Positions 4,891 through 13,914 of a stretch of 22,377 bases of DNA are shown here, piece by piece. The stretch comes from a virus. The stretch lies in UHGV virus genome UHGV-0172060, one strand, 5' to 3'. The notes beneath the pieces were generated by a model. That model worked only from the letters and a program-made list of their open reading frames with translations, was not told where the DNA came from and did not search any database. The translations under genes and the position numbers were made by a program. The stretch's first letter is position 1; every line of letters starts with the position of its first letter.

Positions 4891-4921
4891 TGAGTAATGA
4901 AAAGCCACCTTCTGGTGGCTA
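4890..4921 (-). terminator. rho-independent terminator downstream of the repressor gene (tImm-like)
   Basis: Minus strand: agccacc-agaa-ggtggct followed by tttcatt, about 20 nt after the repressor stop at 4942. Confidence 0.6.
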
Positions 4922-4941: not shown

Positions 4942-5634
4942 TTAATTGTGTCGCTTAAGGGTTTGTGACTGACTGATTAAGACCTTTCCAAAGACCATAA
5001 ACCGGTGTTCGTTTTCGCTGGTAATTCCCCATTCGCGGTAAATCTGATTATCAGAAATTACCAGCAGTTTATCAGGTATCATTTGCAGTCGTTTGACGTA
5101 AATTTTATCATCAAAACCAAATACATATATACCATCCCCATCAAACTGATTGATACTGATATCAACGAAGATGAGATCTCCTGGCTCAATGGTTGGACAC
5201 ATACTGTCCCCACGAACGTTGATAACTTTAATGTGATTTGCTGGTCGTCCACCAAACATCGATACAGCATTATCAGTTCTGTATTCAATGGCATGAATCA
5301 CATCAATGACATCACCGCCCTGGATAAGGCCATTTCCCGCACTGGCACTGACATCCAGCATTTCAATACGGAATACATCCTTCACCTGCGCAACATCCTC
5401 ACTAATACTGTTTTTACATACAGTATTACTTTTGAGGTCTGAGGTAAAGAGATCAGCAATATCAACACCTAAGCTCCTGGCAATATTACTCAGGGCTTGT
5501 TCAGTGAATTGTTTCTGCTTACCTGTTTCGAGGCGCGAGATATTCGCCGCATCCACTCCTATTGCTTCAGCGAGATCGGCGATTTTCATGTTCTTCGCCT
5601 GGCGAAGTTGTCTGACTCGATTTCCTATGTTCAT
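4942..5634 (-). CDS. cI-like prophage repressor (XRE HTH + S24 LexA-like peptidase domain)
   Basis: N-terminal HTH (RQLRQAKNMKIADLAEAIGVDAANISRLETGK); C-terminal S24 signatures (GDSMCPTI serine, VKRL lysine); divergent from a cro-like gene. Confidence 0.9.
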   Translation of the reverse strand: MNIGNRVRQLRQAKNMKIADLAEAIGVDAANISRLETGKQKQFTEQALSNIARSLGVDIADLFTSDLKSNTVCKNSISEDVAQVKDVFRIEMLDVSASAGNGLIQGGDVIDVIHAIEYRTDNAVSMFGGRPANHIKVINVRGDSMCPTIEPGDLIFVDISINQFDGDGIYVFGFDDKIYVKRLQMIPDKLLVISDNQIYREWGITSENEHRFMVFGKVLISQSQTLKRHN

Positions 5635-5992: not shown

Positions 5993-6536
5993 GCATCATT
6001 GGAAAGTGGAAAAACAACCTGAGTGGTACGTGAAAGCTGTCAGAAAAACTATCGCGGCATTGCCAGGGGGTTACGCTGAAGCTGCTGACTGGCTGGATGT
6101 AACAGAGAACGCTTTATTCAACCGCCTTCGTGCAGATGGCGATCAGATTTTCCCGTTGGGATGGGCAATGGTTTTACAGCGTGCTGCTGGCAATCACCAC
6201 ATTGCGGATGCTGTCGCACAGTCTGCTGGTGGGGTGTTTGTATCACTTCCTGAAATTGAGGAAGTAGAGAACGCCGATATCAACCAGCGCCTGCTGGAGG
6301 TCATTGAACAGATCGGCAGTTATTCCAGACAGATTCGTTCAGCAATTGAAGACGGGGTGGTGGAACCACACGAGCAGGCAGCAATTAACGACGAGCTGTA
6401 CATGTCAATTTCGAAGCTGCAGGAGCATGCAGCACTGGTCTACAAAATCTTTTGCGCTCCAGAAAAGAGTGACGCCCGCGAGTGTGCAGCTCCGGGCGCC
6501 GTGGCGTTTTGTGTCTGTGGAGAAACTAACGCATGA
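5985..6536 (+). CDS. CII-like/YdaT-family early regulatory protein (putative)
   Basis: 183-aa ORF with GTG start and AGGAGG SD, overlapping the end of cro; its position after cro matches the CII/YdaT slot of lambdoid and Rac-type prophages. Family assignment tentative. Confidence 0.5.
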
Positions 6537-6871
6537 ACAGTTTAACAACACACTACCGTCGCTCGCAACTGATTGCGCTTCCTGTACCGGGTGGAAAAGC
6601 GAAGGTGGAGTATTGCTATGCAGTGAATGTACCAGGTGACAGGGAAATTGTAACCCACAGCTTTGCAGAGTGGGCTGTGGGTGATTTCAACCGGCAGAAG
6701 GAGACAGTCCTTTGCGACAAGTTAACCGCTGGTTCAAAGATCACTACGGAGTGCCCGTCAGAGTCATTCGTTGGGAGCCGGAAACACAACGGGTTATCTA
6801 CCTCCGTGAAGGCTATGAACATGAATGCTTCAGTCCGCTCGAACAGTTTCGTCGTAAATTCAGGGAAATAG
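6533..6871 (+). CDS. hypothetical protein (ORF A; N-terminal half looks protein-like, C-terminal half looks out of frame)
   Basis: ATGA-coupled start at 6533, ends 9 nt before the O-like start; the C-terminal ~50 aa are Ser/Asn-rich and overlap a better-looking ORF in another frame. Confidence 0.35.
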
Positions 6872-6924: not shown

Positions 6925-7873
6925 TCTTGCATGCCGTATTGGTCTGAATGAGGCAATTGTGTTGCAGCAGCTTCATTACTGGCTGAATGAAACGAATTCA
7001 GGCACTGAGCATGGCGGAATTCGCTGGGTTTATAACACGACAGAACAGTGGCTGGAGCAGTTTCCGTTCTGGTCAGAGTCCACTCTGAAACGCACATTTG
7101 CAAGCCTGAAATCACTTGGGGTTTTGCGTCGCGAGCAACTCAATAAATCGAAGCGTGACATGACCAACTTCTACACGATCAACTATGAAAGTGAGCTTTT
7201 AGAAGAGGTCAAAGTGAACGAATCGATCAGGTCAAAATGCACTTCTCCATCGGGTCAAAGTGACCTGATGGATGGGCGCAAAATGACACGATCCATTGGT
7301 TCAAAACGACACGCTGTCATCGGGTCAAAATGGCCCAATGATCTTACAGAGAATACAACAGAGATTACTACAGAGAATAAAACCTCTTCTCGTCCGGACG
7401 CTTCGCAACCGGACACGCAAACGGCTGAACAGGAGTTTTTTACTCGCCATCCTGATGCGGTTGTATTCAGCCCTAAAAAGCGCCAGTGGGGAACGCAGGA
7501 TGATTTGACCTGCGCACAGTGGCTCTGGAAAAAAATCATCGCCCTGTACGAGCAGGCCGCCGAATGTGACGGCGAGGTGGTTCGTCCCAAAGAACCGAAC
7601 TGGACAGCCTGGGCAAACGAAATTCGCCTGATGTGTGTGCAGGATGGTCGTACTCACAAACAAATCTGCGAGATGTACAGCCGCGTCAGCCGCGATCCGT
7701 TCTGGTGCCGTAACGTGCTCAGCCCGTCGAAGTTGCGGGAAAAATGGGATGAGCTTTCCCTGCGCTTATCGCCGTCCGTCAGCACGCACACAGAAAAACG
7801 TGAAGACCCGTACTTCAAAGCCAGTTACGACAACGTGGACTACAGCCAGATCCCGGCAGGATTCAGGGGGTGA
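6881..7873 (+). CDS. replication initiator protein (lambda O-like) with origin iterons embedded in the coding sequence
   Basis: N-terminal DNA-binding-like region ([26 protein letters not shown]); central low-complexity linker encoded by direct repeats; GAGGT SD. Confidence 0.7.
   Translation: MSLLMTSQPIVINRDLACRIGLNEAIVLQQLHYWLNETNSGTEHGGIRWVYNTTEQWLEQFPFWSESTLKRTFASLKSLGVLRREQLNKSKRDMTNFYTINYESELLEEVKVNESIRSKCTSPSGQSDLMDGRKMTRSIGSKRHAVIGSKWPNDLTENTTEITTENKTSSRPDASQPDTQTAEQEFFTRHPDAVVFSPKKRQWGTQDDLTCAQWLWKKIIALYEQAAECDGEVVRPKEPNWTAWANEIRLMCVQDGRTHKQICEMYSRVSRDPFWCRNVLSPSKLREKWDELSLRLSPSVSTHTEKREDPYFKASYDNVDYSQIPAGFRG
7205..7390. repeat. candidate replication origin: about five iterons at ~23-bp spacing plus three 12-bp ACAGAGA A-rich repeats
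   Basis: Iterons (a/g)TC(g/a)GGTCAAA(a/g)TG centred near 7210, 7233, 7256, 7302, 7326; then ACAGAGAATACA / ACAGAGATTACT / ACAGAGAATAAA at 7346, 7358, 7370. Confidence 0.65.
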
Positions 7874-7875
7874 TC

Positions 7876-8364
7876 ATGAGTCTTTTGAATGAAGTTCAGA
7901 AATTCATTGAAGCCCATCCGGGGTGTACTTCCGGAGACATTGCGGATGCTTTTGCAGGTTACTCACGGCAGCGCGTTCTGCAGTCAGCAAGCAAGTTACG
8001 TCAGAGTGGGCGTGTGGCTCACCGTTGTGAAGGAGATACACGCAGACATTTCCCACGCCTGACTGAGAGAGCGCAGGAGCCGGAACCACAACCAGTTCGT
8101 GAAACCAGACCTGTGCGCAATTTCTATGTCGGCACTAACGATCCCCGGGTGATTTTGTGCCTGACTCGCCAGGCGGAAGAACTGGAGTCCAGGGGCCTAT
8201 ACCGTCGTGCTGCAACGGTGTGGATGGCGGCATTCCGTGAAAGCCACTCCCAGCCAGAACGAAACAATTTTCTGGTGCGTCGTGAGCAGTGTTTACGGAA
8301 AAGCAGCAAGCGCGCTGTATCGGGTGATGAGTGGTATCTGTCAGGGAATTACGTGGGGGCTTAA
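7876..8364 (+). CDS. putative regulator with C-terminal PerC-like domain
   Basis: ATG 7876 with GGGGGTGA SD; C-terminal LTRQAEELESRGLYRRAATVWMAAFRE...VRREQCL matches the recalled PerC-family signature (LE..GL.RRAA..W...RR..CL). Confidence 0.5.
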   Translation: MSLLNEVQKFIEAHPGCTSGDIADAFAGYSRQRVLQSASKLRQSGRVAHRCEGDTRRHFPRLTERAQEPEPQPVRETRPVRNFYVGTNDPRVILCLTRQAEELESRGLYRRAATVWMAAFRESHSQPERNNFLVRREQCLRKSSKRAVSGDEWYLSGNYVGA

Positions 8365-9017
8365 TGAGTAATAAATATTGCCAGGAGCTGGTGGAACTGC
8401 GGAACAAACCAGCCCATGAACTGAAGGAAGTGGGTGATCAGTGGCGCACGCCGGACAACATTTTCTGGGGAATTAACACCCTGTTTGGCCCGTTTGTTCT
8501 GGATCTGTTCACTGACGGTGATAACGCCAAATGTACCGCGTATTACACGGCGGAAGACAACGCGCTGGCGCATGACTGGTCAGAACGCCTTGCGGAGCTT
8601 AAAGGTGCTGCCTTTGGTAATCCTCCATACAGCCGCGCCAGTCAGCATGAGGGGCAATACATCACCGGCATGCGTTACATCATGAAACATGCCAGTGCCA
8701 TGCGTGATAAGGGCGGGCGCTATGTTTTCCTGATCAAAGCTGCCACCAGCGAAGTGTGGTGGCCGGAAGATGCAGATCATATTGCTTTTATTCGCGGGCG
8801 TATTGGTTTTGAACTGCCTGTCTGGTTTATCCCGAAAGACGAGAAGCAGGTACCGACAGGAGCTTTTTTCGCTGGTGCTATTGCTGTTTTTGACAAGACC
8901 TGGAAGGGATCGGCAATCAGCTACATCGGGCGCGATGAACTTGAGGCATGTGGTGAGGCGTTTCTGGCGCAGGTTCGCCAGCAGGCGGAAAAACTGGTCA
9001 GGGAGATGGCGGCATGA
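8364..9017 (+). CDS. phage Dam-like N6-adenine DNA methyltransferase (orphan)
   Basis: FGNPPYS catalytic motif (NPPY); ~217 aa; TAATG-coupled start with GGGGG SD; no adjacent restriction endonuclease. Confidence 0.75.
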   Translation: MSNKYCQELVELRNKPAHELKEVGDQWRTPDNIFWGINTLFGPFVLDLFTDGDNAKCTAYYTAEDNALAHDWSERLAELKGAAFGNPPYSRASQHEGQYITGMRYIMKHASAMRDKGGRYVFLIKAATSEVWWPEDADHIAFIRGRIGFELPVWFIPKDEKQVPTGAFFAGAIAVFDKTWKGSAISYIGRDELEACGEAFLAQVRQQAEKLVREMAA

Positions 9018-9340
9018 CGACATTAACTCAATGCCAGCAGCAGGTGCTGGATATGCTGATTTCTTATCAGAAAGAGCGTGGCTTTCCGCCAACCAATCAG
9101 GAGGTGGCAACCATGCTGGGATACCGTTCAGTGAATGCAGCGGTGGAGCATCTTCGCGCACTGGAGAAAAAAGGCGTCATCACGATAAAGCGTGGCGTGG
9201 CCCGGGGGATAACGCTTCATACCGCGGTGAAGGACGACGACAGCGAGGCGGTCGGGATTATCCGCGCACTGCTTGCCGGTGAGGAAAACGCAAGGCTGCG
9301 TGCAACCCACTGGTTACATGAGAGGGACCTGAAAGTATGA
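9014..9340 (+). CDS. LexA N-terminal DNA-binding-domain homolog lacking the S24 peptidase domain
   Basis: Residues 1-70 align closely with the LexA DNA-binding domain (LT..QQ.V.D.I......G.PPT..E.A..LG.RS.NAA.EHL.AL..KGVI.I..G..RGI.L); the protein stops at 108 aa with no protease domain. Confidence 0.75.
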   Translation: MTTLTQCQQQVLDMLISYQKERGFPPTNQEVATMLGYRSVNAAVEHLRALEKKGVITIKRGVARGITLHTAVKDDDSEAVGIIRALLAGEENARLRATHWLHERDLKV

Positions 9341-9726
9341 AGCTGATCCTGCCTTTTCCGCCCAGCGTGAACACGTACTGGCGACACCCCAACAAAGGGG
9401 CATTTTCTGGTAAGAGCCTGATAAGCGCGGCGGGGCGAAAATTTCAGAGCGCGGCGTGCGCAGCAATAGTTGAGCAGTTACGTCGTCTGCCAAAACCAAC
9501 GTCGGCACCTGCTTCAGTGGAGATCGTGTTGTTTCCTCCGGATAACCGGATCCGCGATCTGGACAACTATAACAAGGCGCTGTTTGACGCCCTGACCCAC
9601 GCGGGTGTGTGGGAAGACGACAGACAGGTGAAAAGAATGCTGGTGGAGTGGGGACCGGTTATCCCGGAAGGGAAGGTCGAGATCACTATCAGTAAGTACG
9701 AGAAAACGGCGGGTGCAGCCGCCTGA
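9337..9726 (+). CDS. rusA: RusA-family Holliday junction resolvase
   Basis: LPFPPSVNTYWRH ... RDLDNYNKALFDALTHAGVWEDDRQV: characteristic RusA motifs including the catalytic Asp cluster; ~129 aa. Confidence 0.9.
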   Translation: MKLILPFPPSVNTYWRHPNKGAFSGKSLISAAGRKFQSAACAAIVEQLRRLPKPTSAPASVEIVLFPPDNRIRDLDNYNKALFDALTHAGVWEDDRQVKRMLVEWGPVIPEGKVEITISKYEKTAGAAA

Positions 9727-9745
9727 GCAAAAGGAGAAACGAAGT

Positions 9746-10555
9746 ATGAATAATCTGATGGTCATTGATGGTATTGAAGTTCGTCGTGATGCTTATGGGC
9801 GTTACAGCCTGAACGATCTGCATCGCGCAGCAGTAGCATCTGGTGCAAATGCCAGAACCAAGGAGCCGGGAAAGTTTCTTTCCAGCCAACAAACTGTTGA
9901 GCTTGTTCATGAATTGACCAACACCCAGAATTTGGGTGTTGACCCGGTGAGTGTGATTCATGGGGGAAATGAACGGGGAACGTATGTCTGCAAGGAACTG
10001 GTGTATGCCTATGCAATGTGGATCAGCCCGTCATTCCATCTGAAGGTGATCCGTACTTTCGATATGGTAACCAGCGCACCGGAAAAATTATCCGGACAGG
10101 CTGCTGACAAGATGCAGGCTGGCGTGATCCTGCTGGACTTTATGCGCCGGGAGTTAAACCTGTCTAACTCTTCAGTGCTTGGTGCCTGTCAGAAACTCCA
10201 GGAGGCTGTTGGCTTACCGAATCTGGCACCGCGCTATGCCATTGATGCTCCTGCTGACGCGCCTGATGGCTCAAGCCGCCCCACGCTATCATTGAGTGCA
10301 CTGCTGAAGCAGTATGGTATCCGCCTGACAGCTAATCAGGCATATCACCAGATGGCGAAGCTGGGGATCGTTGAACAACGTGAACGATACAGCCGCACTG
10401 CGATTAACAACATCAAAAAATTCTGGTCGCTGACAGCGAAAGGCTGCATGTTCGGCAAGAACATCACCAGTCCCGCAAATCCGCGCGAGACGCAGCCGCA
10501 TTTCTTCGAATCCCGATTCCCTGAGCTGTTAAAGCTGCTCGATACCGTTCATTGA
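9746..10555 (+). CDS. KilA-N domain protein (antirepressor-like)
   Basis: N-terminal KilA-N-like region (VIDGIEVRRDAYGRYSLNDLHRAA ... GTYVCKELVYAYAMWISPSFHLKVIRTFD); start at the ATG with AAGGAG SD. Confidence 0.7.
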   Translation: MNNLMVIDGIEVRRDAYGRYSLNDLHRAAVASGANARTKEPGKFLSSQQTVELVHELTNTQNLGVDPVSVIHGGNERGTYVCKELVYAYAMWISPSFHLKVIRTFDMVTSAPEKLSGQAADKMQAGVILLDFMRRELNLSNSSVLGACQKLQEAVGLPNLAPRYAIDAPADAPDGSSRPTLSLSALLKQYGIRLTANQAYHQMAKLGIVEQRERYSRTAINNIKKFWSLTAKGCMFGKNITSPANPRETQPHFFESRFPELLKLLDTVH

Positions 10556-10556
10556 G

Positions 10557-11552
10557 GTGACCGTGAGAGCACTACTGACTCCTGAAATTGCCCCGCGTAT
10601 GGGGATCGTATTGTTCAGGCCAGGTTCAGAGCTGATGCCCCTGTTTATGCAGGGGCGTGTCCTGCTGGAGCCTGAGCCGGAACGTTATTCATCTTTTGCC
10701 AGTGGTGCCGTTCCGGCGGTATCACAACCGCTGGCGGATGATCCTGCCGTTCGGGGCGTGTTCCGCAATGAGGCAGTGATCCGTCGTGCTGGTGGCGTGG
10801 AATGTCTTGAAAGCTGGTTACTTCGTGAAAAGGGCTGTCAGTGGCCTCATTCCGACTGGCACAGCGAGAACATGACCACAATGCGGCACGCGCCGGGCGC
10901 AATCCGTCTGTGCTGGCACTGCGATAACCAGTTGCGCGATCAGTTCACGGAACGGCTGGAATCAATGGCAACGGATAACTGTGCCCGCTGGGTATTGTCT
11001 GTTGTGCGTCGGGATCTCGGTTTTGATGATAGTCACGTTGTGACAATGCCGGAACTGTGCTGGTGGCTGGTTCGTAATGACCTGGCGGATGCCTTACCGG
11101 AAAGTGCAGCCCGTAAGGCACTGAGATTACCGAAGCCTGTTGTGCCGTCTGTCACCCGGGAAAGTGACCTTGTGCCTTCGGTTCCTGCCACCAGCATCAT
11201 CCAGGATAAGGCGAAAAAGGTGCTGGCGCTGAAAGTGGATCCGGAGTCGCCGGAGTCTTTTATGTTACGCCCAAAACGTCGCCGCTGGGTTAATGAAAAG
11301 TACACGCGCTGGGTTAAGACACAGCCGTGTGCATGTTGTGGAAAGCCCGCTGATGATCCCCACCACCTGATAGGCCACGGTCAGGGGGGAATGGGTACAA
11401 AAGCGCATGACCTCTTTGTGTTGCCTTTGTGCAGAAAGCATCACGACGAGCTGCATGCGGATACCGTGGCATTTGAAGAGAAGTATGGCTCCCAGTTGGA
11501 GCTGATATTTCGTTTTATCGATCGTGCGCTGGCAATAGGCGTACTGGCGTAA
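10557..11552 (+). CDS. DUF968-like phage protein with C-terminal Cys/His (HNH-like) metal-binding motif
   Basis: 331-aa ORF with C-terminal CACCGKPADDPHH...CRKHHDELH; GTG start is uncertain (poor SD). Confidence 0.55.
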   Translation: MTVRALLTPEIAPRMGIVLFRPGSELMPLFMQGRVLLEPEPERYSSFASGAVPAVSQPLADDPAVRGVFRNEAVIRRAGGVECLESWLLREKGCQWPHSDWHSENMTTMRHAPGAIRLCWHCDNQLRDQFTERLESMATDNCARWVLSVVRRDLGFDDSHVVTMPELCWWLVRNDLADALPESAARKALRLPKPVVPSVTRESDLVPSVPATSIIQDKAKKVLALKVDPESPESFMLRPKRRRWVNEKYTRWVKTQPCACCGKPADDPHHLIGHGQGGMGTKAHDLFVLPLCRKHHDELHADTVAFEEKYGSQLELIFRFIDRALAIGVLA

Positions 11553-11565
11553 GTGGAGAACGAGC

Positions 11566-12318
11566 ATGAACCTTGAAGCCTTACCAAAATATTACTCCCC
11601 AAAATCTCCCAAATTGAGCGATGAGGCACCGGCGACAGGCTCGAGTGGTTTAACGATTACGGATGTGATGGCTGCGCAGGGGATGGTGCAGTCGAAAGCA
11701 CCGCTTGGGTTTGCCTTATTTCTGGCAAAAGTTGGTGTTCAGGATCCTCAGTTTGCGATTGAAGGTCTGCTCAATTACGCGATGGCACTGGATAACCCGA
11801 CATTGAACAAATTGAGTGAAGAAACCCGGTTACAGATCATCCCTTACCTTGTGAATTTTGCCTTTGCTGATTATTCCAGGTCTGCTGCAAGTAAGGCTCG
11901 CTGTGAGCATTGTGCTGGTACTGGATTTCATAATGTATTGCGCGAAGTGGTGAAACACTCCAGAAGCGGGGAATCTGTTATCAAGGAAGAGTGGGTGAAG
12001 GAACTATGTCAGCATTGTTATGGTAAGGGAGAGGTCAGCACAGCGTGTAGAGGGTGTAAGGGGAAAGGTATTGTACTGGATGAAAAAAGAACCCGGCTTC
12101 ATGGTGCGCCTGTTTATAAGGTTTGTGGGCGTTGCAATGGAAACCGGTTTAGCCGTTTACCAACCACACTGGCGCGGCATCATGTCCAGAAGCTGGTACC
12201 GGATCTGACGGATTATCAGTGGTACAAAGGATATGCAGATGTCATTGATAAACTGGTTACAAAGTGCTGGCAGGAAGAAGCATATGCAGAGACACAATTG
12301 AGAAAAGTGACAAGATAA
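11566..12318 (+). CDS. putative late-gene antiterminator Q-like protein with four CxxCxGxG zinc-finger repeats
   Basis: Lies immediately upstream of a PR'-like promoter and tR'-like terminator; CEHCAGTG, CQHCYGKG, CRGCKGKG, CGRCNGNR repeats; GGAG SD. Confidence 0.55.
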   Translation: MNLEALPKYYSPKSPKLSDEAPATGSSGLTITDVMAAQGMVQSKAPLGFALFLAKVGVQDPQFAIEGLLNYAMALDNPTLNKLSEETRLQIIPYLVNFAFADYSRSAASKARCEHCAGTGFHNVLREVVKHSRSGESVIKEEWVKELCQHCYGKGEVSTACRGCKGKGIVLDEKRTRLHGAPVYKVCGRCNGNRFSRLPTTLARHHVQKLVPDLTDYQWYKGYADVIDKLVTKCWQEEAYAETQLRKVTR

Positions 12319-12385: not shown

Positions 12386-12423
12386 ACGATGGGCTTTGTA
12401 TGTCTACCGTTGATAAGATTTAA

Positions 12424-12450
12424 GAACCCGCCACTGAGCGGGTTTTTTGT
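12424..12450 (+). terminator. tR'-like rho-independent terminator downstream of the late promoter
   Basis: aacccgcc-actga-gcgggtt followed by ttttgt. Confidence 0.7.
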
Positions 12451-12570
12451 ACCTGTAAACTTGGTGCAGTACAGTAAACACGCTGGTGGTCGTGAATACT
12501 GACTTTTTATCTTGCTGGATTTTTAGACAAGAGTTATTGGTATGTCATGTTAACCAGAAGGGAAAAAGAC

Positions 12571-12834
12571 ATGCTAAAACAGCAAGATATGACAGAAACC
12601 GCCGCCGCAGTCCTTCATTTCTTACCTGCTGACAAGTGGGTAACGCCACGCATGATGACGAGAACTACCGGAGTAAGCGAAGCCCGGTGCCAGTTAATAC
12701 TGACTCAGTTAGTTCTGGCGGGTCTGGCGAAGGATAACGGCGGGTGGGTGTTGGTAGCACCTGCCAGCCATTCGCTCATGCTTACTGGTCACAAGCGAAC
12801 CACGGCCCACTGCTTTAGCGCAAAAGCAGAGTGA
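12571..12834 (+). CDS. small winged-helix-like protein (possible PapI/FaeA-like regulator) upstream of a methyltransferase
   Basis: Start placed at the ATG with AAGGGA SD (the ORF-track start at 12547 has no SD); VLHFLPADKWVTPRMMTRTTGVSEARCQLILTQLVLAGLA resembles a PapI-type winged helix. Assignment tentative. Confidence 0.5.
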   Translation: MLKQQDMTETAAAVLHFLPADKWVTPRMMTRTTGVSEARCQLILTQLVLAGLAKDNGGWVLVAPASHSLMLTGHKRTTAHCFSAKAE

Positions 12835-12861
12835 GCCTACCAGAGTTACGCTTACTGATCC

Positions 12862-13914
12862 ATGAAAAATACTGTAAAAATAAACAGTGTTGATTTAATC
12901 AACGCTGATTGCCTGCATTTTATTCAGTCCCTGCCTGATGATTCCATTGACCTGATTGTTACCGATCCGCCTTACTTCAAGGTGAAACCTAACGGTTGGG
13001 ACAATCAGTGGAAAGGGGACGAAGATTACCTTAAGTGGCTGGACCACTGTCTGGCCCAGTTCTGGCGGGTGTTGAAACCTGCCGGAAGCCTTTACCTGTT
13101 CTGTGGGCATCGCCTGGCATCTGATATTGAGATCATGATGCGTGAACGTTTCAACGTGCTTAACCATATCATCTGGGCGAAGCCGTCCGGACGTTGGAAT
13201 GGGTGTAATAAAGAAAGTCTGCGCGCATATTTTCCTGCCACAGAGCGCGTTCTGTTTGCTGAACATTACCGGGGGCCATATCGCGGCAAAAGTGACGGCT
13301 ATGCGGCAAAAGAAAGGGAACTCAAACAGCACATAATGGCACCGCTGATATCGTATTTCAGGGATGCTCGTGCCGAACTGGGTATAACGGCAAAACAAAT
13401 TGCCGAAGCCACAGGTAAGAAAAATATGGTTTCCCACTGGTTTGGTGCCAGTCAGTGGCAGTTGCCGAATGAGGCTGACTATCGGAAGTTACAGGCACTG
13501 TTTTCCCGTATAGCGGTAGAGAAGTTTCAGGAACAACAACTGGAACAACCACACCACCAGCTGGTGGCATCTTATGATTCACTGAATCGCAAATATTCTG
13601 AATTGCTGGATGAGTTTAAATCTCTCCGGCGCTATTTCTCCGTATCAGTCTCCGTGCCTTATACCGATGTCTGGACGCATAAGCCCGTTCAGTTCTACCC
13701 GGGTAAACATCCGTGCGAGAAACCGACGGATATGCTCCGGCAAATAATCAATGCCAGTAGTCGACCTGGTGATCTGGTTGCTGATTTCTTTATGGGATCC
13801 GGTTCCACAATAAAAGCAGCAATGGCGCTGGGGCGTCGGGCGTTAGGTGTTGAACTTGAGTCAGAGCGGTTTAATCAGACGGTGAAAGAGGTAAGTGAAC
13901 TGGTGGGGAAATAA
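12862..13914 (+). CDS. DNA methyltransferase, beta-class (N6-adenine or N4-cytosine), orphan
   Basis: N-terminal DPPY motif (IVTDPPYF), C-terminal AdoMet-binding motif (DFFMGSGST), i.e. beta-class motif order; 350 aa; no neighbouring endonuclease. Confidence 0.85.
   Translation: MKNTVKINSVDLINADCLHFIQSLPDDSIDLIVTDPPYFKVKPNGWDNQWKGDEDYLKWLDHCLAQFWRVLKPAGSLYLFCGHRLASDIEIMMRERFNVLNHIIWAKPSGRWNGCNKESLRAYFPATERVLFAEHYRGPYRGKSDGYAAKERELKQHIMAPLISYFRDARAELGITAKQIAEATGKKNMVSHWFGASQWQLPNEADYRKLQALFSRIAVEKFQEQQLEQPHHQLVASYDSLNRKYSELLDEFKSLRRYFSVSVSVPYTDVWTHKPVQFYPGKHPCEKPTDMLRQIINASSRPGDLVADFFMGSGSTIKAAMALGRRALGVELESERFNQTVKEVSELVGK

Follow-up and report, generated by a model that had tools for sequence, protein, structure and literature searches.

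We analysed a window of 22,377 nucleotides (the whole stretch presented as UHGV virus genome UHGV-0172060), which is an mEp460/SfV-like lambdoid prophage, with attention to one small gene of its rightward operon that encodes a LexA-type DNA-binding domain standing on its own, followed by a short tail and not by the protease half of LexA. The open reading frame (ORF) is ATG-initiated and 108 amino acids (aa) long, occupies 9014..9340 on the plus strand in the ORF list, stop codon included in the coordinates, and is a real, conserved gene that has already been annotated automatically. Its features, with the evidence for each, are the following.

9014..9340, plus strand: gene of the stand-alone LexA DNA-binding-domain protein (ORF list; full-length phrog_362 match; phage copies; ratio of nonsynonymous to synonymous substitution rates, dN/dS)
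9001..9005, plus strand: Shine-Dalgarno sequence GGGAG, 8 nt 5′ of the ATG (read from the sequence)
9014..9017, plus strand: ATGA overlap of the start of the gene with the stop of the Dam-like methyltransferase gene at 8331..9017 (ORF list and sequence; Dam PF05869, E = 6.9e-45)
9337..9340, plus strand: ATGA overlap of the stop of the gene with the start of rusA at 9337..9726 (ORF list and sequence; RusA PF05866)
9014..9217, plus strand: LexA-type winged helix-turn-helix, residues 1-68 (PF01726; AlphaFold2 model; Foldseek match to 3jso)
9131..9169, plus strand: recognition helix VNAAVEHLRALEK, residues 40-52 (alignments; contact residues according to PMC3091678; family tabulation)
9224..9238, plus strand: putative flexible linker, residues 71-75, modelled with low confidence (predicted local distance difference test, pLDDT, < 50)
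9239..9319, plus strand: predicted family-specific two-helix hairpin, residues 76-102, with helices at 76-88 and 93-102 (AlphaFold2 model; alignment; tail profile)
9275..9280, plus strand: A88-G89, the AG of the string LLAGEE, not a conserved cleavage site (HMMER alignment; AlphaFold2 model; family tabulation)

The DNA-binding domain and the tail

Residues 1-65 match the Pfam family LexA_DNA_bind (PF01726) over the whole 65-position profile (E = 2.9e-19, 69 bits against a cutoff of 23.7), and the Pfam scan returned no match to Peptidase_S24 (PF00717) in the 108-aa protein. The NCBIfam lexA equivalog TIGR00498 aligns over positions 1-91 of its 203 only and reaches 70.6 bits, below its cutoff of 110.95; the top sequence matches in the PDB are the N-terminal domain of E. 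coli LexA (1lea, E = 6e-16) and then full-length LexA. A single-sequence AlphaFold model of the protein was poor (pLDDT 58), and the AlphaFold2 model used throughout was built in its place on a 34-sequence alignment of the family (pLDDT 83). It has helices at residues 6-22, 28-35, and 40-52 and strands at 56-58 and 66-68, followed by disordered residues 71-75 and by the two helices of the tail. The first 66 residues superpose in Foldseek on DNA-bound E. coli LexA (3jso) with a root mean square deviation (rmsd) of 1.0 Å and 52% identity, and the same search found no LexA counterpart of the C-terminal tail. The original prediction of a LexA N-terminal winged-helix domain without the S24 protease is borne out by the PF01726 match, the superposition on 3jso, and the missing PF00717 match, and the structure prediction and LexA alignment that it proposed as a check place residues 1-68 in the LexA fold and set the tail apart from LexA.

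The tail has a conservation pattern of its own. The 34-sequence alignment keeps hydrophobic or small residues at positions 79, 82, 83, 86, 87, 93, 97, 100, and 101, and A93, A97, and L101 are nearly invariant. With this many apolar positions conserved along two short helices, the tail looks like a surface for packing, and the hairpin is probably a dimerisation element.

The string LLAGEE in the tail had been likened to the Ala-Gly cleavage loop of LexA, a likeness that proves to be not above chance. The string is present, and HMMER places A88-G89-E90 opposite A84-G85-E86 of LexA, but extending the LexA alignment over the AG lowers the score from 61.9 bits (residues 2-70) to 60.1 bits (residues 2-90). 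The AG itself occurs mainly in a near-identical E. coli clade, and the same two positions hold ND, NG, AE, AN, EG, KG, ER, NN, and other pairs elsewhere in the family. The cleavage site of LexA sits in an extended strand-loop, whereas the A88-G89 segment is predicted to form the C-terminal end of an α-helix. With no added score, a variable AG, and a helical segment, we reject LLAGEE as a vestigial LexA cleavage loop. As far as sequence and model can tell, the protein is non-cleavable, having neither an S24 domain nor a conserved cleavage site, and DNA damage can probably not switch it off.

Family, prevalence, and selection

The protein matches phrog_362 end to end (positions 1-106 of 106, E = 3.8e-59), a family to which NCBI gives the name "LexA family transcriptional regulator". 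Near-identical copies (96-100%) are found in mEp460 (mEp460_046), SfV (orf42), SfII, SfIV, cdtI, and Stx2a, Stx2c, and Stx2k converting phages, with 97-100% for those of mEp460, SfV, SfII, cdtI, and the Stx2a and Stx2c phages. Automatic annotation has called mEp460_046 a "LexA DNA binding domain protein" and other phage copies "hypothetical" or "transcriptional repressor"; the names "SOS-response repressor and protease LexA" and "RecA-mediated autopeptidases", also given within the family, are wrong. At a nucleotide identity of at least 95%, 2233 of the 5426 complete E. coli genomes (~41%) have the gene, in as many as four copies each. The family was extended by word-indexed and exhaustive protein searches to proteins of 105-135 aa with identity down to ~40%, from Salmonella, Citrobacter, Cronobacter, Klebsiella, Atlantibacter, Enterobacter, and Kosakonia.

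A hidden Markov model (HMM) of the tail alone picked up 164 of the 323 retrieved proteins, none of which (0/164) has an S24 match. Against the Salmonella allele, dN/dS is 0.11 overall, 0.03 in the DNA-binding domain, and 0.26 in the tail, and by this comparison of sequences the family is under purifying selection. A truncated or pseudogene LexA is therefore rejected on the grounds of uniform family length, a conserved tail peculiar to the family, the absence of S24-bearing members, and low dN/dS; the same numbers speak against a fragment of a full-length LexA-like repressor, which the original prediction had named as the finding that would undo it.

The exhaustive protein search also returned proteins (P0130, P0131, P0148, P0150, P0153, and others) that carry two LexA_DNA_bind stretches per chain and could represent pseudo-dimers of the LexA head within a single chain.

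Operon context and LexA-type boxes

The genes around the LexA-like gene that bear on its interpretation were assigned by Pfam, and the two boxes were scored with a LexA weight matrix.

4942..5634, minus strand: cI-like repressor (HTH_3 and S24)
7870..8364, plus strand: PerC-like protein
8331..9017, plus strand: Dam methyltransferase (PF05869)
9337..9726, plus strand: RusA (PF05866)
9713..10555, plus strand: KilA-N protein
10557..11552, plus strand: DUF968/HNH protein
11566..12318, plus strand: Q antiterminator
12862..13914, plus strand: N6_N4 methylase
5406..5425, no strand assigned: candidate LexA-type box TACTGTTTTTACATACAGTA in the cI-like repressor gene (24.7 bits)
12870..12889, no strand assigned: candidate LexA-type box TACTGTAAAAATAAACAGTG in codons 3-9 of the N6_N4 methylase gene, 8 nt past the start codon (22.8 bits)

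The genes from PerC to Q are closely packed or overlapping, which makes the LexA-like protein a product of the early-right operon rather than the immunity repressor. An S24 repressor of the cI type is encoded elsewhere in the window, and the LexA-like gene lies 3.4 kb downstream of it in the rightward operon. Transcription of the gene together with the Dam-like methyltransferase and RusA, as first suggested, is supported by the ATGA overlaps on both sides. The gene order and the overlapping ends recur in Cronobacter prophages (~50% protein identity), Salmonella, and Citrobacter. The constant neighbours are the PerC-like gene on the 5′ side and rusA on the 3′ side; Dam is missing in SfIV, 2H10, and a Citrobacter prophage.

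Klebsiella prophages deviate from this order, with dinI-orf-gene-orf-DUF968 and a homologue of 130 aa. In one of them (L006, 5362-6393), where the homologue has LL at positions 44 and 45, a near-consensus LexA box, TACTGTTTATTTATACAGTA, overlaps the dinI promoter TTGAAC-17-TATACT, and no plus-strand terminator was found between this promoter and the LexA-like homologue. This position of the homologue, 3′ of a dinI promoter under SOS-box control and with no terminator found in between, ties the family to SOS modulation.

The junction between the Dam-like gene and rusA has a different form in ST64B (L022, 32327-33606), where the Dam-like gene sb44 (297 aa) carries an extra ~80 aa at its C-terminus and directly abuts rusA; this junction is the position held by the LexA-like gene in the window.

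Our LexA-box matrix derives from E. coli boxes and gives approximate values where absolute scores are concerned; neither the shuffle control nor the perfect matches to TACTGT-N8-ACAGT(A/G) depend on it. The top score in 100 shuffles was 17.1 bits, against 24.7 and 22.8 bits for the two boxes of the window, and the same two are the only perfect CTGT-N8-ACAG matches and the only CTNT-N8-ANAG palindromes that the window contains. The box in the cI-like gene is the core of a perfect palindrome with 9-nt arms, TAATACTGT-N8-ACAGTATTA, at 5403-5428, where the gene codes for the linker. Alleles that are only 69-76% identical overall (SfII, ST64B, Klebsiella phage 1 LV-2017, and Flotzy) conserve this block best, and no obvious promoter lies over 5403-5428. 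In the methylase gene, the arms of the box are intact and its spacer is varied in phiP27, Stx2_EH2201, phiNP, and Hafnia phage yong2, which suggests SOS control of this late-region methylase.

A local whole-genome tblastn found the LexA-like gene absent from phiP27 and from ST64B (no match with E < 2). Both boxes are thus kept in one or the other of two phages that lack the gene, and their role as dedicated operators of the LexA-like protein is unsupported; they may still be among its targets in a non-dedicated way. The box scan put forward in the original prediction gave, in the prophage, two perfect boxes that are present independently of the gene.

The operator search covered inverted repeats, CTGT/ACAG spacings of 0-14, CTNT-N8-ANAG, and perfect intergenic palindromes with 6-nt arms, and yielded no other operator-like palindrome in the window beyond terminator-like hairpins, the cI/cro operators, and the two N8 boxes. 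The intergenic palindromes with perfect arms are G+C-rich hairpins, for example the terminator-like ones at 4903-4920 and 12422-12447. Rfam and tRNA scans of the window gave no matches.

Two further sequence elements came to light. An inverted repeat with perfect 9-nt arms, ACCCACAGC-N12-GCTGTGGGT, lies at 6653-6682 inside the ORF at 6533..6871, just 5′ of the replication-gene region. A conserved leader of ~100 nt precedes the methylase gene (window ~12742-12861; L001 15937-16056; homologues) and comprises three hairpins, with compensatory changes at 7 of 31 pairs across six phages and no match in Rfam. The window is without ~63 nt that are present in mEp460 and cdtI, and their absence apparently lengthens the small ORF on the 5′ side (65-87 aa in those phages that were checked) so that it runs into the leader, to give the 95-aa ORF at 12547..12834.

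Proposed role, alternatives, and known counterparts

We tentatively propose that the protein is a RecA-insensitive surrogate of LexA that restores repression at SOS-type operators after the host LexA has been lost, a reading that on sequence and model we regard as possible, if short of probable. The protein would be made only after the S24-type cI repressor of the prophage has been inactivated, or after infection. Its hairpin would dimerise it and so take over the dimerisation role of the LexA C-terminal domain, and the dimer, which would then be nature's equivalent of the engineered LexA(1-87)-leucine-zipper repressors, would bind LexA-type palindromes with CTGT-like half-sites. With no cleavage possible, repression would return at SOS-type operators just when the host LexA is destroyed. 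The dimer might act on SOS genes of the host, on functions of rival prophages that LexA controls, and on the two LexA boxes that the phage itself carries. A more far-reaching version, in which the protein serves as a prophage-encoded "SOS off" switch that re-silences the SOS regulon during lytic growth and sets the hierarchy of prophage induction, appears rather unlikely.

The binding specificity that this proposal needs can be judged from the recognition helix. The DNA contacts of helix III in E. coli LexA are S39, N41, A42, E44, and E45 (PMC3091678), and this residue list is also our only source for the role of Glu44. At these positions, the window protein has S39, N41, A42, V44, and E45, so that four of the five LexA residues are retained. 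In the family alignments, S39 and the wing R64-G65-I66 were invariant, and N41 and H46 were nearly so. The altered-specificity variant LexA408 (P40A, N41S, and A42S) has its recognition changed from CTGT to CCGT, and the retention of N41 and A42 in the phage protein argues for a CTGT-like half-site. Further points for the surrogate reading are the 52% identity to DNA-bound LexA, the lack of S24, the conserved helical tail, the purifying selection, the synteny and overlapping ends kept in other genera, the place of the Klebsiella homologue 3′ of dinI, and the fact that the CTNT-N8-ANAG palindromes of the window are high-scoring canonical LexA boxes. GIL01 gp7 gives a precedent for phage manipulation of the LexA regulon, by which a co-resident prophage is silenced and outcompeted (PMC9700832).

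Several observations weigh against the surrogate reading. When the retrieved proteins were aligned to the family HMM and split by tail versus S24 domain, Glu44 was absent from all 153 scorable members of the tail family, which have V, A, T, N, L, or F instead, and present in 19 of the 21 S24-bearing LexAs retrieved with them. Of the 153 members, 135 have E or D at position 45, with L, T, G, or I in some subfamilies (44-45 pairs LL in Klebsiella, and LT, AG, and FI). As far as is known, the hosts of these subfamilies all share one SOS box, and the loss of E44 throughout, together with a variable position 45 despite that shared box, argues against simple SOS-box mimicry. The replacement of Glu44 probably alters the affinity or one base of the half-site, and strict mimicry of SOS-box binding is uncertain on these alignments. 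The suggestion of the original prediction that the protein could sit on SOS boxes as a non-inducible repressor or decoy is thus plausible and partly favoured, yet contested. The window boxes, being kept in phiP27 and ST64B, which lack the gene, are most simply sites of the host LexA, and no LexA-type box was found within 6 kb of the gene in the Cronobacter prophages. The AlphaFold2 model is of a monomer only, with a predicted template modelling score (pTM) of 0.58. A full-text literature search found no experimental study of the enterobacterial PHROG 362 family, and only gp6 and gp7 of the phage GIL01 surfaced.

The main alternative, which we find possible but doubtful, is a private regulator of the kind represented by GIL01 gp6. 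The LexA DNA-binding domain would have been retuned through positions 44 and 45 and through a new dimer geometry to a non-SOS palindrome of its own, and it would activate or repress particular phage or host genes in lytic growth with no direct effect on SOS. The precedent is a known one: gp6 of this Bacillus tectivirus is a truncated LexA homologue from the early operon, has no cleavage domain, binds its own palindrome over the -35 of the late promoter P3, and activates transcription (PMC6182141). Stand-alone LexA-type DNA-binding proteins of 65-150 aa are numerous among phages, as judged by fold matches in BFVD, and their number favours a private role, as do the family-wide loss of Glu44, the variation at 45 among subfamilies in spite of a common host SOS box, and the occurrence of the window boxes independently of the gene. 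Against a private regulator, no alternative palindrome is prominent in the intergenic regions of the window, and the search of the window for CTNT-N8-ANAG sites returned just the canonical boxes; N41 and A42, the determinants of CTGT versus CCGT recognition in LexA408, are conserved; and late-gene control is already exercised by the Q antiterminator.

The two remaining alternatives fare much worse. It is very unlikely that the protein is a decaying LexA-like remnant, or a protein that binds no DNA and acts through contacts with, e.g., RecA or LexA. The LexA half for dimerisation and cleavage is indeed missing, but conservation already largely refutes this reading: the family has a uniform length, a conserved tail of its own, and no member with S24, its DNA-binding domain has the dN/dS of 0.03 reported above, and the gene occurs at high identity in 41% of complete E. 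coli genomes. Moreover, the part of LexA that RecA contacts is the C-terminal domain, absent from this protein. An SOS-responsive cleavage of A88-G89 in trans, by host LexA, UmuD, or the C-terminal domain of the phage cI together with RecA*, which would make the regulator inducible, is barely conceivable, for although HMMER sets AGE (88-90) against A84-G85-E86 and intermolecular cleavage by C-terminal fragments of LexA and lambda cI was reportedly seen in vitro by Kim and Little in 1993, the AG varies in the family, its segment is predicted to be a helix end and not a strand-loop, and the alignment gains no score by extension over it.

The interest of the protein lies mainly in how widespread its gene is, Shiga-toxin phages included, and in the low cost at which both outcomes could be tested. 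Should it bind SOS boxes, a non-inducible SOS repressor would be encoded by very common prophages of E. coli, Shigella, and Shiga toxin-producing E. coli, the Stx2a and Stx2c converting phages among them. Such a repressor could alter how the host responds to DNA damage, as well as mutagenesis, the expression of colicins and toxins, and the competition of co-resident prophages at induction, with a bearing on Shiga-toxin release and on SOS triggered by antibiotics. If the stronger "SOS off" version were true, SOS-induced toxins, colicins, mutagenic polymerases and, above all, the LexA-controlled antirepressors of rival prophages would be shut off. If, on the other hand, the protein has its own operator, it would be the second independent case after GIL01 gp6 of a LexA DNA-binding domain turned into a private phage regulator, and a natural example of LexA specificity shifted by a substitution at residue 44.

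Among known systems, the closest relatives are the short proteins of PHROG 362 (mEp460_046, SfV orf42, and those of cdtI and the Stx2 phages), which belong to the same family, have the same flanking genes, and show no structural difference. In kind, the window protein is a variation on an established type, the LexA DNA-binding domain that stands alone in phages, and it has been catalogued and named automatically, with a putative function. With the N-terminal domain of E. coli LexA (1lea and 3jso), it shares the winged helix-turn-helix fold, S39, N41, A42, E45, and the R64-G65-I66 wing. It differs from LexA in lacking the S24 protease and dimerisation domain and a functional Ala-Gly site, in the change of Glu44 to Val, and in its two-helix tail, which stands for everything past residue 70. 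The BlaI/MecI-type repressors resemble it in combining a short winged helix with C-terminal helices, which is an analogy and not membership, as the fold matches are weak (rmsd > 8 Å) and there is no sequence relation.

A closer parallel in design is provided by engineered repressors. LexA(1-87) joined to a heterologous small dimerisation element represses SOS operators and is not cleavable, and fusions of LexA(1-87) to dimerisation domains are said to have been the basis of the bacterial LexA two-hybrid systems of Schmidt-Dorr in 1991 and Dmitrova in 1998. The shared plan is a LexA DNA-binding domain with a small dimerisation element, which in the phage protein is predicted. The engineered fusions are artificial and keep Glu44, whereas the phage arrangement is natural, with putative dimerisation and a putative operator.

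GIL01 gp6 is the nearest characterised counterpart outside the family, in that each of the two proteins is a LexA DNA-binding domain that a phage encodes in an early operon and that lacks a cleavage domain. The two differ as follows: gp6 is 66 aa long, consists of the winged helix only with no tail, and is derived from a Bacillus-type LexA, whereas the window protein has a helical tail and belongs to a Q-controlled lambdoid phage. BLASTP produced no alignment of gp6 to the window protein, and the best PHROG of gp6 is phrog_3502, with E = 2.8e-5 only to phrog_362. The lack of a BLASTP alignment and the membership in different PHROGs (3502 and 362) show the two to be independent captures by phages, with the LexA domains taken from different hosts.

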